Positions 1,755-13,912 of a DNA stretch of 20,329 bases are shown one piece after another. Origin of the DNA: a virus (Duplodnaviria; Heunggongvirae; Uroviricota; Caudoviricetes). The position numbers were made by a program, and so were the translations under genes. Every line of letters starts with the position of its first letter. Position 1 is the first letter of the stretch. The DNA lies in IMG/VR virus record IMGVR_UViG_2537561946_000003, positions 1 through 20,329 of that record. The stretch is one strand, 5' to 3'. The notes beneath the pieces are model-generated. The model saw only the letters and a list, made by a program, of their open reading frames with translations, ran no database searches and was not told where the DNA came from.

Positions 1755-2192
1755 TTATTTTAAGCACTGCGTCCTGATGTATTCCTGCAGGTAGTTAACC
1801 TGCGCGGTTATCTTGTCGATTCCACCTCGGAGACGGTAATAATTGAGTTCAGCATCTGCTGTAAGCCCTGGGCTTTCTCCATCGCCCATGCTGCTGGCTC
1901 CGGTCGTTGACTTTGCACAGGTGGCGGAGACTTGCAGGCGCTTACGACCAGCAGAAACATCGGCACGGAGACTTTCGATAGTCGCGTTAGCATCAGCAAG
2001 TTCCTTTGTATATCTTGCGTCGAGTTCTGCTACATCACGTTGACGCTTCTGCATATCAGCGATGATGGATGTGGCTTTATCGCGCTGCTCTTTGTAGGCG
2101 ATGGCGTTATCACGGTAATGATTAACAGCCCATGACAGGCAGAGGATGATGCAAATAACCAGAGCGGAGATAATCGCGGTTACCCTGCTCAT
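1755..2192 (-). CDS. Rz: Rz i-spanin (inner-membrane spanin subunit)
   Basis: [39 protein letters not shown]... closely resembles lambda/phage 21 Rz. ATG at 2192 overlaps the endolysin stop (ATGA overlap). N-terminal TM segment then a coiled-coil-like periplasmic region. Confidence 0.85.
1808..1993 (-). CDS. Rz1: Rz1 o-spanin lipoprotein, embedded in the +1 frame of Rz
   Basis: Embedded ORF with ATG at 1993 (the ORF-track codon at 1999 is TTG). [20 protein letters not shown] has a signal peptide and lipobox (VSAC) followed by a Pro-rich segment. AAGGA Shine-Dalgarno about 9 nt upstream. Confidence 0.7.
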
Positions 2193-2686
2193 TGCTGCCC
2201 CCACAAACAGACTTCACGCTCAATATCACGACGGGTCATCAGCCCTTTCCATTGCTTACCGCCAGCGTATGTCCAGCAACGTAGCTGGTCACATGCGCCT
2301 TTGATATCACCCTGGTTTATTTTGCGAAGAAGCGTCGATGTTCTGAAATTACCAGCGCCCACGTTGTAAACGAGCGAGTAAAGAGCGCCGCGCGTTGTTT
2401 CCGGTATATCGACTTTGATGTACGGGTTAATTTGTCTGGCGACCATGGCAAGGTCTTTATTCAGGAGGGCTTTGCATTCTGCTTCGGTATACGTTTTACC
2501 GGGAATGATGTCTTTTCCGGTGTGTCCGTGACATACAGTCCATACGCCAACGATATCTTCGTATGGTATGTAGCTGACACCTTCCAGGCCATCGTCACCA
2601 CTCGGACCAGTGATGAGCACAGACGCTATGGCAACAGCCCCACCACCAATAGCAGCAGCAACAGCCTTGCGTAATGATGGCGACAT
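2189..2686 (-). CDS. R: SAR endolysin (phage 21 R-type, T4-lysozyme-like glycoside hydrolase with N-terminal signal-anchor-release domain)
   Basis: [57 protein letters not shown]... is near-identical to phage 21 R21 as recalled. Gly/Ala-rich weakly hydrophobic N-terminus followed by the E...D...T catalytic region. Start overlaps the holin stop (TAATG). Confidence 0.9.
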
Positions 2687-2901
2687 TATTCACCTCTCGC
2701 AGCCTTACGCTTATCTTCTTTAATCTTGAAATAAAGGTTTGTCAGATACGTCAGCAAGCCAAACACCAGGCTACCCAATACGCCTATTGCCACCCACTGG
2801 GATGGGGAGACTTTGTCCAGCAACTGCAGTAGCCAGTATCCCGTCCCCACCGCTGACGTGGTGTATGACACACCTGTTGTGATTTTTTCCATCTGGTACA
2901 T
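2686..2901 (-). CDS. S: Class II holin / pinholin (S21-like), 71 aa with dual-start motif
   Basis: [71 protein letters not shown] resembles phage 21 S21. Two in-frame Met codons (M1, M4) are typical of holin/antiholin pairs. GGAG Shine-Dalgarno upstream of 2901. The ORF-track frame extends to 2946. Confidence 0.85.
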
Positions 2902-3001
2902 ACCCCGTCTCCCGTTATCCGGAAGCTGACAACAATAAAAAGCCACCAGTTAATTCCTGATGGCCCTGATGCATAAACGTCATAATACCTGACTGTTATG
3001 A

Positions 3002-3030
3002 TTGACAATAATGATAATGTTTATATAGAA
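3002..3030 (+). promoter_or_regulatory. Candidate sigma70 promoter (TTGACA, about 16-17 bp spacer, TATAGA-like -10) reading rightward
   Basis: TTGACA at 3002..3007 followed by an AT-rich spacer and tataga/atagaa at 3024..3030. Sits about 50-90 nt upstream of a plus-strand intrinsic terminator. Pattern match only. Confidence 0.25.
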
Positions 3031-3080
3031 AGGTTCCCGATGTGTGTTACATATCATTTCTCCACGGGGAATATCCCCAC

Positions 3081-3130
3081 GCCAGCGCAGACTCTTTTAC
3101 CCGTTCTCTTCTGCGCTGGCTCTTTTTTAT
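3081..3130 (+). terminator. Rho-independent terminator on the plus strand
   Basis: Perfect 10-bp inverted repeat gccagcgcag (3081..3090) / ctgcgctggc (3111..3120), followed by tcttttttatt. T-run only on the plus strand. Confidence 0.4.
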
Positions 3131-3309
3131 TATGCTGCTGCATTTACCTCTGGCACCATGCTTTCTATCTCAACACAATACGTGGTACTTCTTGTAACCA
3201 ATATCATAACGATTAATCGACATAGAATTTCTCCCGTGTACAGGAACAGAGTTAAAAAGCCGGAACCGGAATCAAATCACAGGATGACCATCTGCCAGTG
3301 GCAGGTCAT

Positions 3310-3337
3310 AAAAAAAAGGCCGCGCCATGCGCAGCCA
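3310..3337 (-). terminator. Rho-independent terminator on the minus strand (candidate tR'-like or moron terminator)
   Basis: Minus-strand reading GGCtGCGC-atg-GCGCgGCC followed by a T-run of 8 (plus-strand 3310..3317 is an A-run). GC-rich 8-bp stem with one mismatch. Confidence 0.45.
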
Positions 3338-3522
3338 GAACTCACAAGGAAAATGATAGAAGGAAATAACATTAGTGATGTACGCATGGCGCCTCCCGCT
3401 AAGTTCTGCAATGATCAAACAGAACTCGCTACGTGCCCTTAAAACTCGATCATTTAGCCCCTCCAAGGAGGATTCACCATGCGGTTGTTTTTTTAATAAA
3501 CAGTAAACAAAAAAGTCAAGAA

Positions 3523-3633
3523 TTATTCATTCTGTTTTTTCATCATCGGCCACAGCAATACCACAATGCCGCAGACCAGAGCGCCATCAGTCAGTACCAA
3601 CATTATCCTGCTGGTGAAATCCATCATCACCAT
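3523..3633 (-). CDS. Hypothetical 36-aa hydrophobic peptide (small membrane protein candidate)
   Basis: ATG at 3633 to TAA at 3525..3523 translates to MVMMDFTSRIMLVLTDGALVCGIVVLLWPMMKKQNE: one predicted TM helix and a basic C-terminus. No strong Shine-Dalgarno. Below the ORF-track length cutoff. Speculative. Confidence 0.2.
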   Translation of the reverse strand: MVMMDFTSRIMLVLTDGALVCGIVVLLWPMMKKQNE

Positions 3634-3766
3634 CACTAAAAGCAGGATCACAACAGCAAGCAGACACAGTTTATAAAACAATGTTCAGAAAACGCATTCA
3701 GCATGCCTAAGGTTCTATTCCTACGAATAGCCAACTTGCAACTTAAAATATTATTTATGCAGCCAA

Positions 3767-4525
3767 TTAAATTCTGGTCCTTACAATATCAACCTGAAGA
3801 TTCTTATCTTGTGCTGATTGATAAATGACAAACCTTTTACTACCTGCATTGAAAGAAGTAGACAAAACCAGACAATTATCATAACGAGCAAGAACATAAT
3901 ACCAACCATCATTATAATTAATCATTTCATATTCTTTCTTAAACTGCGGTTTGTAATATCCTGTCAGAAATGAAAAAAGCCAGAAATATGCCACAAAAGC
4001 AATCATCACAATCTCAAAAAAATGTTTTTTTATAAATGGCTTATCATAGAAGCATGATACCGATAAAAATCGCCCATAAGATCTTATCGAAATTGTAACC
4101 GCCAGCGCAATCGCTGCTGACAGTAGCAAAAGAGGTACCTGAATCTTCTGTCTCAATATAGAAAACTCAATAATTGCCGGCACAAACAATAATTCCACAG
4201 CAAAATAAAGGCGAAATACATTTAGCTCTTGCATAGAATGTTTTCTTTTCACTGCGAAAAAGAATACAACACCAATACCCCAACCGATAAGAAATATAGC
4301 AATGACGATAACTGCAAAAAATAAACTTCTGGCAACATCATCAACACCTGCACCTACAATCCACCATGGGAAGCCGTAGTAAAAAGAAGTACCCCATCCA
4401 TAGAAATAAGCACTCCCCCATCCAAGGCATCCCATGTAGGCAATAAAAAGTGAAGAACTCCTGAGCAGTGCACCATCCTTCATAACCACCCCAATACAAG
4501 ATGATAACATTGGCTTACAACTCAT
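3767..4525 (-). CDS. Hypothetical polytopic inner-membrane protein (AT-rich moron between Q and the lysis genes)
   Basis: 252-codon ORF, probably starting at ATG 4483 (GGGGTGG Shine-Dalgarno; MKDGALLRSSS...). Several hydrophobic Phe/Tyr/Trp-rich segments (about five predicted TM helices) and a C-terminal soluble region of about 50 aa. Visibly AT-rich compared with flanking phage genes. No family recognised. Confidence 0.6.
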   Translation of the reverse strand: MSCKPMLSSCIGVVMKDGALLRSSSLFIAYMGCLGWGSAYFYGWGTSFYYGFPWWIVGAGVDDVARSLFFAVIVIAIFLIGWGIGVVFFFAVKRKHSMQELNVFRLYFAVELLFVPAIIEFSILRQKIQVPLLLLSAAIALAVTISIRSYGRFLSVSCFYDKPFIKKHFFEIVMIAFVAYFWLFSFLTGYYKPQFKKEYEMINYNDGWYYVLARYDNCLVLSTSFNAGSKRFVIYQSAQDKNLQVDIVRTRI

Positions 4526-4684
4526 AACAAAAGCAATTCAATGCCGTCAAGAGGTTACAGGCTAAAAAAACTCTATTACATTGCAGTCAGCATGTTTACT
4601 ACACAAATACAATTCAGAGCATAAAAACTACTCGGCGGCAGGTTATTGAGACTCATCAATGACATGTAAAAAACGCCCATTATT

Positions 4685-4762: not shown

Positions 4763-5386
4763 CTAACGTGTGATCGCATTCAAAATGTTGTCTGCGATTG
4801 ACTCTTCCTTGTGGCATTGCACAACCAGAGCGTCATACAGCGGCTTAACAGTGCGTGACCAGGTGGGTTGGGTAAGGTTTGGGATTAGCATCGTCACAGC
4901 GCGATATGCGGCGCTTGCTGGCATTCTTGAATAACCGACGCCTTTACATCTTCCGCACTCTTTCTCAGCAACTATCCCCCACTGCTCTGTTTTGGCTATA
5001 TCAACCGCACGGCCTGTACCGTGGCAATCTCTGCATCTTGCGCCCGGCGTAGCGGCACTACGGCAATAATCCGCATAAGCGAATGTTGCGAGCACTTGCA
5101 GTACCTTTGCCTTAGTATTTCCTTCAAGCTTTGCCACGCCACGGTATTTCCCCGATACCTTGTGTGCAAATTGCATCAGATAGTTGATAGCCTTTTGTTT
5201 GTCGTTCTGGCTGAGTTCGTGCTTACCACAGAATACAGCCATTCCGAATCCGGCTTGTGATTGCGCCATCCCCATAGCAGCCATCACATCAGTACCGGAA
5301 AGAGAGTCAGAAGCCGTGGCCCGTGGTGAGTCGCTCATCATCGGGCTTTTTGGCGAATGAAATTTAGCTACGCTTTCGAGTCTCAT
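4763..5386 (-). CDS. Q: Late-gene antiterminator Q (lambda type)
   Basis: 207 aa, MRLESVAKFHSPKSPMMSDSPRATASDSLSGTDVMAAMGMAQSQAGFG... is essentially identical to lambda Q as recalled, including the Cys-rich zinc-binding region. ATGA overlap with ninH. Confidence 0.95.
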   Translation of the reverse strand: MRLESVAKFHSPKSPMMSDSPRATASDSLSGTDVMAAMGMAQSQAGFGMAVFCGKHELSQNDKQKAINYLMQFAHKVSGKYRGVAKLEGNTKAKVLQVLATFAYADYCRSAATPGARCRDCHGTGRAVDIAKTEQWGIVAEKECGRCKGVGYSRMPASAAYRAVTMLIPNLTQPTWSRTVKPLYDALVVQCHKEESIADNILNAITR

Positions 5387-13675: not shown

Positions 13676-13747
13676 GCGCTGCGTTACCGCATACCAATAA
13701 CGCTTCACTCGAGGCGTTTTTCGTTATGTATAAATAAGGAGCACACC

Positions 13748-13912
13748 ATGCAGTATGCCATTGCAGGGTGGCCTGTTGCTGGCTGCCCTTCCGAATCTTT
13801 ACTTGAACGAATCACCCGTAAATTACGTGACGGATGGAAACGCCTTATCGACATACTTAATCCGCCAGGAGTCCCAAAAAATGGATCAAACACTTATGGC
13901 TATCCAGACTAA
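13748..13912 (+). CDS. cIII: CIII (FtsH/HflB inhibitor stabilising CII)
   Basis: Hand translation from ATG 13748 (AAGGAG Shine-Dalgarno): [54 protein letters not shown], matching lambda CIII. Below the ORF-track cutoff. Confidence 0.9.
   Translation: MQYAIAGWPVAGCPSESLLERITRKLRDGWKRLIDILNPPGVPKNGSNTYGYPD

Follow-up and report, generated by a model that had tools for sequence, protein, structure and literature searches.

Several small RNAs (sRNAs) of Escherichia coli lend themselves to comparison with the element described here, a plus-strand unit at positions 3002-3129 of a 20,329-nucleotide (nt) stretch of a Caudoviricetes virus record (IMGVR_UViG_2537561946_000003, positions 1-20,329; the whole stretch is called the window below). 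Esr41 (EcOnc14; Rfam family RF02676), which binds Hfq, is encoded near iha and ter on the non-phage island SpLE1 (OI-43/48) and has targets in iron acquisition, the published ones, all of them repressed, being chuA, cirA and bfr. RyhB, the core Fur-repressed sRNA, also binds Hfq, makes contact with enterobactin genes (entCEBAH) and promotes siderophore production. PasA and PasC of enteropathogenic E. coli (EPEC; EcOnc51/52 in enterohaemorrhagic E. coli, EHEC) lie beside the holin gene, antisense to the late genes, and are paired with PasD. AgvB, AsxR and EcOnc03 are Hfq-bound, highly abundant RNAs of 51-60 nt that act as sponges for GcvB and FnrS; in lambdoid prophages, downstream of the late promoter, each forms a convergent pair with another sRNA and is the partner on the antisense strand; such pairs are described for eight prophages of E. 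coli O157:H7 Sakai, including Sp3 (Tree et al. 2014, Mol Cell, PMC4104026). The unit in the window is identical in sequence to the gene of EcOnc32, an RNA catalogued from Sp3, and very probably encodes an Hfq-dependent regulatory sRNA that acts on distant messages and that a lambdoid prophage carries as lysogenic cargo, in the interval from its late promoter to its lysis genes.

Identity with EcOnc32 and published expression

Of the 5,426 complete E. coli genomes, 564 had the 151 bases at window 2990-3140 with 100% identity; these 564 include O157:H7, O55:H7 and O111 strains. Over longer distances, window 2076-4644 showed 98.4% identity with prophage Sp3 of O157:H7 Sakai, and window 2940-3520 differed by one base from prophage PP4 of EPEC E2348/69. 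Sakai coordinates were obtained by subtracting the window position from 904708. The element aligned to Sakai 901577-901669 (L003 11578-11670), and both copies scored 122.5 bits with the model. In Table S2 of Tree et al. (2014, PMC4104026), EcOnc32 is entered as an orphan peak of Hfq UV cross-linking and analysis of cDNA (Hfq-CRAC) in Sp3, at Sakai 901574-901662 (minus strand), which corresponds to window 3046-3134 (plus strand) after conversion. The entry bears a flag for a Rho-independent terminator and a Northern band of about 112 nt, and only one of the table entries examined has a higher Hfq-CRAC signal.

Expression of the same RNA in EPEC is documented by RNA sequencing (RNA-seq) and by RNA interaction by ligation and sequencing (RIL-seq). 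In the chimeras obtained by the latter method, an sRNA is typically the second RNA. Pearl Mizrahi et al. (2021, PMC8550237) filed the reads under the open reading frame (ORF) E2348C_1013, which was always RNA2 in its chimeras and had eight significant partners. In virulence-activating medium, its baseMean amounted to 2064 (flanking phage genes, 4-6) and dropped 7.5-fold upon deletion of hfq (log2 fold change of -2.9, adjusted p = 1e-23); in non-activating medium, the baseMean was 220 (PMC8550237), so that the RNA was about 9-fold higher in activating medium. All RIL-seq chimeras had the low coordinate 1060613, which is window 3129, just past the U-run. Since both these EPEC fragments and the Sakai fragments recovered by cross-linking, ligation and sequencing of hybrids (CLASH) end at window 3129, the terminator works in vivo.

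The EPEC reads were filed as coding sequence because a 132-amino-acid ORF (ECs_0817/E2348C_1013; window 3044-3442, plus strand) is annotated at this position, and RefSeq lists it as a 'hypothetical protein' in hundreds of genomes. That the unit is merely the start of a protein-coding gene is nevertheless hardly credible. A strong terminator is encountered 40-85 nt into the ORF and the RNA has its 3' end there, the ORF runs antisense across the sRNA PasD1, and no Pfam family was matched. Moreover, a 1-nt insertion shifts the frame in the Oki, STEC306 and CFIA variants, and RefSeq marks these copies as pseudogenes. The ORF, which spans both sRNA genes, is almost certainly an annotation artefact. 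EcOnc32 is an already catalogued RNA for which the literature offers a table entry only, without function, start site or family assignment; a literature search found no mention of EcOnc32 or EcOnc13 in the main text of any paper.

Structure of the RNA and its terminator

Folds starting at 3025, 3037 or 3049 contained the same three hairpins, with z-scores of -6.1 to -7.2 and none of the 200 shuffled sequences as stable. In the 5' hairpin, the G.U pair 3042/3052 becomes an A-U pair in phage Evi and in the Oki type. The terminator hairpin is formed by the arms GCCAGCGCAGA (3081-3091) and TCTGCGCTGGC (3110-3120), which are 100% complementary over 11 base pairs (bp) around a loop of 18 nt; no other short-range inverted repeat in the window is perfect over 11 bp or more. 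A terminator scan missed this hairpin, because loops of only 3-8 nt are allowed by that scan. On the plus strand, the hairpin is followed by the T-run TCTTTTTT (3121-3128), whereas the minus-strand side has GTGGGGATATTCC. The U-tailed 3' end of the terminator is likely the end to which Hfq binds. Sequence variants preserve the terminator stem by means of G.U pairs and one bulge, and the stem GCCAGCG/CGCTGGC, together with its downstream flank, is common to a plus-strand terminator of phage 434.

An earlier note, based on the letters of the window, had described this unit as a TTGACA/-10-like element followed by a perfect 10-bp inverted repeat and a plus-strand T-run, from which a short RNA of about 95 nt would arise. 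The promoter-like element is present (3002-3007 and 3024-3029), the T-run is confined to the plus strand as described, and the repeat is perfect but longer by one base pair than reported. Depending on the start site, an RNA of 91-105 nt is predicted, in agreement with the length given in the note, and the Hfq-bound EcOnc32 originates from the identical Sakai sequence. The note also placed all genes nearby on the minus strand, which holds for the real ones (those for Q, the DUF3927 protein, holin, lysozyme and Rz), and considered the unit unable to terminate the late transcript. The latter statement was borne out: a late-strand terminator was rejected, given the absence of a T-run from that strand. 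The plus-strand transcript is documented by the published Northern band and by the 3' ends at 3129 in RIL-seq and CLASH data.

Relationship with Esr41

Judged from covariance models and pairwise comparison, EcOnc32 is a distant paralogue of Esr41, and a non-member of that family by the Rfam criterion. A permissive Rfam scan returned a full-length Esr41 match (model positions 1-74, 32.3 bits, E = 3.9e-4), and Rfam at its curated thresholds gave no match in the sRNA region. Reciprocally, a model made from EcOnc32 variants detected Esr41 (26.4 bits, E = 7e-4). The pairwise score between both RNAs was 31, versus -11.8 +/- 7.2 for shuffles (z of about 6). In the model-fitted alignment, 94.6% of the pair cells were paired and eight pairs were altered on both sides, versus 3.6 in shuffles; both the 5' hairpin and the terminator contained compensatory changes. 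The 5' hairpin of Esr41 occurs in the same place, five of its seven pairs being altered on both sides.

The layout of both RNA genes is alike, encompassing a TTGACA -35 hexamer, a 5' hairpin (GAUG.../...CAUC), a single-stranded CAUUU(U)CUCCA seed, a GGGG/CCC hairpin and a GCCRGC terminator with U-run, and both bind Hfq. They differ in the terminator loop, which counts 7 nt in Esr41 versus 18 nt in EcOnc32, and in their genomic context, as Esr41 resides on an island, whereas EcOnc32 is found in a lambdoid late region, between the DUF3927 gene/PasD1 and the holin gene. The same genomes have EcOnc32 and Esr41 at two distinct loci. In a pattern scan of species-representative genomes, the family was found only in E. 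coli and Shigella flexneri; six further matches, in unrelated metagenome-assembled genomes, were discarded as chance. Esr41-like Rfam matches near PasD were remarked upon by Zhu et al. (2026), without follow-up.

Targets and likely mode of action

Among the targets of EcOnc32, the best supported is entC, with which the operon for enterobactin synthesis begins. Firstly, the 5' untranslated region of entC was represented by 263 RIL-seq chimeras (odds ratio of 14, p = 4e-165), the highest odds ratio among the partners examined (PMC8550237). Secondly, RNase E-CLASH on strain Sakai (Waters et al., PMC5286369) yielded four EcOnc32-entC (ECs0632) reads, as well as two EcOnc32-ECs1655 reads. The sRNA half starts at A3049 in both CLASH chimeras, and the chimeric entC fragment covers the ribosome-binding site and the start codon. 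Thirdly, ACAUAUCAUUUCUCCAC of the sRNA pairs with GUGGAGGAUGAUAUG of entC over the Shine-Dalgarno sequence and the AUG, at -21.3 to -21.7 kcal/mol, a value that none of 1000 shuffles equalled. The Esr41 seed pairs weakly with entC (-11.8 kcal/mol), the stronger pairing of EcOnc32 (-21.7 kcal/mol) being due to different seed flanks. Similarly, the start of ECs1655, a yciG-like gene in Sakai prophage Sp8, forms 14 perfect bp with the seed over its Shine-Dalgarno sequence and AUG. The partners recovered in vivo, namely entC, the yciG-like gene, the rpoS leader and dnaK, are all encoded elsewhere. The chimeras with the rpoS leader and with the nleB pseudogene region were treated as abundance-driven or indirect.

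Most likely, EcOnc32 represses entC and a small number of further mRNAs in an Hfq-dependent manner, by masking their translation start regions. A sigma-70 promoter (TTGACA at 3002-3007) would give rise to a transcript of about 90-105 nt that ends at the intrinsic terminator around 3129. This RNA would adopt the Esr41 layout, with a 5' hairpin, a single-stranded C/U-rich seed (CAUAUCAUUUCUCCAC), a GGGG/CCCC hairpin and an Hfq-binding, U-tailed terminator. Its seed is predicted to cover the Shine-Dalgarno sequence and the start codon of mRNAs encoded elsewhere, and the expected outcome would be a translation block and RNase E-dependent decay of the target.

The earlier note had sought the function of the RNA in cis, as an antisense regulator that, ahead of the holin gene, would base-pair with the late transcript complementary to it and could thereby alter the expression or timing of the lysis genes. 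EcOnc32 does converge on the late operon, with perfect complementarity over about 90 nt to the Q-antiterminated late transcript crossing 3129-3039, and reviews call the reason for the presence of sRNA pairs at this prophage site unknown. However, seen from the holin start codon (2901), the transcribed part (3025/3039-3129) is situated 124-228 nt upstream, and a duplex with the late transcript would stop at least 138 nt before that codon. There is no overlap with the ribosome-binding site or the coding region of the gene to be regulated, the ribosome-binding site of the holin gene is left free, and a minus-strand terminator (2967..2939) is located in between. Furthermore, the RNA is abundant in uninduced lysogens, in which the flanking late-region genes are almost silent (2064 versus 4-6), its recovered partners are encoded elsewhere, and its relatives occur in other contexts, such as Esr41 on SpLE1 and variants downstream of stx2B. 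Because of this distance from the holin start, the intervening terminator, the production in lysogens and the location of the partners, control of lysis by antisense pairing lacks support and is an unlikely role for EcOnc32, although a secondary effect on the late transcript upon induction is conceivable.

A role as a sponge, comparable with that of AgvB and AsxR and with a core sRNA as the main partner to be titrated, appears still less probable than antisense control. EcOnc32 has the same position and antisense orientation within its pair as AsxR and AgvB, and the mcaS-ogt intergenic region was among its RIL-seq partners (29 chimeras). In contrast, EcOnc32, at about 90-112 nt, is longer than these sponges, and it lacks the 42-nt 3' module that AgvB, AsxR and EcOnc03 have in common (GCCCGAACCCACTCGGGC-U in AsxR), the AsxR terminator being GCCCGAACCC... 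versus GCCAGCG... in EcOnc32. In addition, the best-supported partner of EcOnc32 is the ribosome-binding site of an mRNA, whereas AgvB, AsxR and EcOnc03 are sponges for GcvB and FnrS. An Rfam scan of the window found no AgvB or AsxR match, and membership of the AgvB/AsxR family was rejected in view of the unrelated AsxR 3' module and the mismatch in length.

A type I antitoxin was considered too, in which the RNA would block translation of a hydrophobic late-strand ORF of 25 codons (3058..2981; MICNTHREPFYINIIIIVNHNSQVL) by covering its ribosome-binding site. Opposite the seed, the late-strand sequence is GGAGAAATGATATG, followed by this ORF, which has an Ile-rich stretch, but the spacing between the Shine-Dalgarno sequence and the AUG is merely 2 nt, and a better-spaced ATG is immediately followed by TAA. 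About six replacements per 23 codons in the Oki variant give no sign of purifying selection, and transcription of the ORF would be limited to late gene expression, which makes this possibility very remote. The 14 nt of GGAGAAATGATATG recur unchanged at the ribosome-binding site and start of ECs1655 in Sakai Sp8; this identity could be a relic or have arisen by chance.

Promoter and candidate iron-dependent control

The pattern TTGACA-N15-19-TATRRW occurred once in the window, versus 0.13 occurrences expected. The TTGACA/TATAGA pair was absent from the output of a generic promoter scan, which gave an overlapping alternative instead (CTGACT at 2989-2994, N18, GATAAT at 3013-3018, plus strand). 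From this alternative promoter, transcription would start near A3025 and yield an RNA of about 105 nt, which would be nearer to the published Northern band of about 112 nt, and the start homologous to that of Esr41 would be G3039, giving 91 nt. Depending on the start site (5' end at 3025-3039, 3' end at about 3129), EcOnc32 is about 90-105 nt long.

Between both hexamers, a Fur-box-like sequence is found (3007-3025), which may serve as an operator for iron-dependent repression and is put forward here as a hypothesis. In the same scan, the known Fur box of entC-fepB matched at 15/19 positions as well. Among simulated 20-kb windows, 4.7% had a match of at least 15/19; when the 61-nt promoter region was shuffled, 0.1% of the trials reached this level. 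The divergent Oki variant retains 15/19, and the Esr41 promoter matches at 12/19 positions. The activating medium and the Hfq-CRAC medium are both presumably low in iron. It is conceivable, although doubtful at present, that EcOnc32 is a Fur-repressed prophage paralogue of Esr41 that, when iron is scarce, blocks entC translation at the Shine-Dalgarno sequence and start codon, whereby the prophage would lower the enterobactin synthesis of its host, opposite to RyhB. Prophage induction could then soak up the RNA by way of the late transcript, linking lysogeny to siderophore output. The likeness to RyhB is a functional analogy only, consisting of Hfq binding, a Fur-box-like promoter sequence and contact with enterobactin genes; there is no sequence relationship, and the pairing of EcOnc32 over the entC start predicts repression.

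Genomic neighbourhood and other prophage sRNAs

The features of the locus are compiled in the table. EcOnc32 (3039-3129, plus strand) faces PasD1/EcOnc13 (3482..3310, minus strand), between the genes for the cargo membrane protein and the DUF3927 protein on one side and the holin gene on the other, which is the convergent-pair arrangement known from the cargo ('moron') site of lambdoid prophages (Tree et al. 2014). PasD1 is placed at 1060260-1060432 (plus strand) in Table S6 of Pearl Mizrahi et al. (PMC8550237), where it is equated with EcOnc13; these coordinates are window 3482..3310 (minus strand). EcOnc13 itself is listed in Table S2 of Tree et al. (2014, PMC4104026) at Sakai 901332-901382 (plus strand), with a length of about 187 nt. 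An Rfam STnc100 match at PasD1 scored 38.9 bits, below the threshold of 47.

Features of the EcOnc32 locus and its surroundings (window coordinates)
Feature	Position	Strand	Basis or remarks
-35 hexamer TTGACA	3002-3007	+	Sequence; retained in Oki and STEC306 variants; equivalent position occupied in the Esr41 gene
Fur-box-like sequence AATAATGATAATGTTTATA	3007-3025	+	15/19 match to GATAATGATAATCATTATC; between -35 and -10; best match in window
Candidate -10 hexamer TATAGA	3024-3029	+	16-nt spacer after TTGACA; 4/6 consensus; without final T
sRNA EcOnc32	3039-3129 (5' end uncertain, 3025-3039; 3' end about 3129)	+	Identical to Sakai Sp3 and E2348/69 PP4
5' hairpin GAUGUGU, loop GUU, ACAUAUC	3039-3055	+	RNA fold
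Seed region ACAUAUCAUUUCUCCACG	3049-3066	+	3056-3065 predicted single-stranded, unpaired probability about 0.9
Small hairpin GGGGA, loop AUA, UCCCC	3066-3078	+	RNA fold; aligns with second hairpin of Rfam Esr41 model
Intrinsic terminator: 11-bp stem, 18-nt loop, then UCUUUUUU	3081-3129	+	Sequence, fold, in-vivo 3' ends
Remnant of nanS-p (sialate esterase, SASA) 3' end and downstream region	3114-3198		About 81% identity to phage 434, H-19B and Stx1 phages, including adjacent terminator
PasD1 (EcOnc13), convergent partner sRNA, 173 nt, seed UGUGAG	3310-3482	-	Terminator 3336..3318
Terminator-like hairpin between sRNA gene and holin gene	2939-2967	-	Terminator scan; homologous phage 434 site annotated as terminator
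P21-type holin S, first lysis gene, two start codons (ATG 2901, ATG 2892)	2686-2901	-	Pfam PF04971, 112 bits; Sakai ECs_0818
Lysozyme, Rz	near holin	-	Gene annotation of window
252-aa (amino acid) cargo membrane protein and DUF3927 protein	downstream of Q	-	Gene annotation of window
Q antiterminator	4763-5386	-	Gene annotation of window

With PasA and PasC, EcOnc32 shares the slot by the holin gene, the antisense orientation to the late genes and the pairing with a PasD RNA, and there is homology in the terminator stem (GCCAGC.../...GCTGGC) and in the flank downstream of it. The body and the seed are unrelated, however; the PasA seed GCCAGCACCU overlaps the PasA terminator stem. Also, nanS-p separates the sRNA pair in the case of PasA and PasC and appears to be deleted in the window. 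In phage 434 and Shiga toxin (Stx) phages, the PasD-like RNA and the holin gene have nanS-p between them. Because window 3114-3198 matches the 3' end of nanS-p and the adjoining terminator, the arrangement in the window looks like the result of an esterase-gene deletion.

Phage 434 (L002, 900-1180, plus strand) carries two tandem sRNA-like units between the holin gene and nanS-p, each with a TTGACA promoter and antisense to the late genes. The first of these matches PasA, and the EcOnc32 model scored 16 bits (E = 0.16) on the second; the record annotates both units as terminators only. Variants of the element were further observed directly downstream of, and antisense to, stx2B (L008 1550-1643 and L009 1496-1575, one Stx2i phage among them). 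This slot is the AsxR position in Sakai Sp5, and the Stx2i copy is without the 5' half, including the promoter. Elsewhere in the window, the lambda cIII thermoregulator was found at 13735-13793 (plus strand; Rfam RF01804, 84.8 bits), the only Rfam match above threshold.

Assessment

Several points weigh against the interpretation of EcOnc32 as an Esr41-related regulator of entC under possible Fur control. As to function, repression of entC is inferred from chimeras and pairing; a literature search retrieved no functional characterisation of EcOnc32, under this name, as ECs0817 or as a prophage sRNA acting on entC; and the rpoS leader and the nleB pseudogene region, which rank first or high in chimera number at low odds ratios, gave duplex predictions no better than shuffles. 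As to the promoter, TATAGA is a weak -10 hexamer, the start site is a predicted one, and the Northern band of about 112 nt exceeds the 91 nt predicted from an Esr41-like start. The rise in low-iron medium is not specific for Fur control either, because PasA and PasD show the same rise in activating medium. As to the paralogy, the score of 32.3 bits stays far below the Rfam gathering threshold of 102 bits for Esr41. A search of the 5,426 E. coli genomes with the Esr41 gene by BLAST returned Esr41 loci only (at least 95% identity) and did not reach the EcOnc32 locus; since BLAST thus does not link the two loci, the paralogy rests on covariance models and pairwise statistics. An IMG/VR scan retrieved 68 loci that represent only about four real sequence types, leaving little independent covariation depth, and the covariation support is soft because these types fall into about two clades and the alignment was fitted to the model.

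Significance

EcOnc32 is no new kind of element. It is among the most heavily Hfq-bound transcripts in EHEC and EPEC, yet is named only by a table entry. A reading of the sequence alone retrieved a real regulatory RNA, one that the 132-amino-acid label of RefSeq masks across hundreds of genomes of pathogenic E. coli. Pooling of public data leads to a testable hypothesis, namely that an Esr41-related prophage sRNA, possibly controlled by Fur, targets the first gene of enterobactin synthesis. If true, this would represent a second phage- or island-borne layer of iron homeostasis in attaching-and-effacing E. coli.

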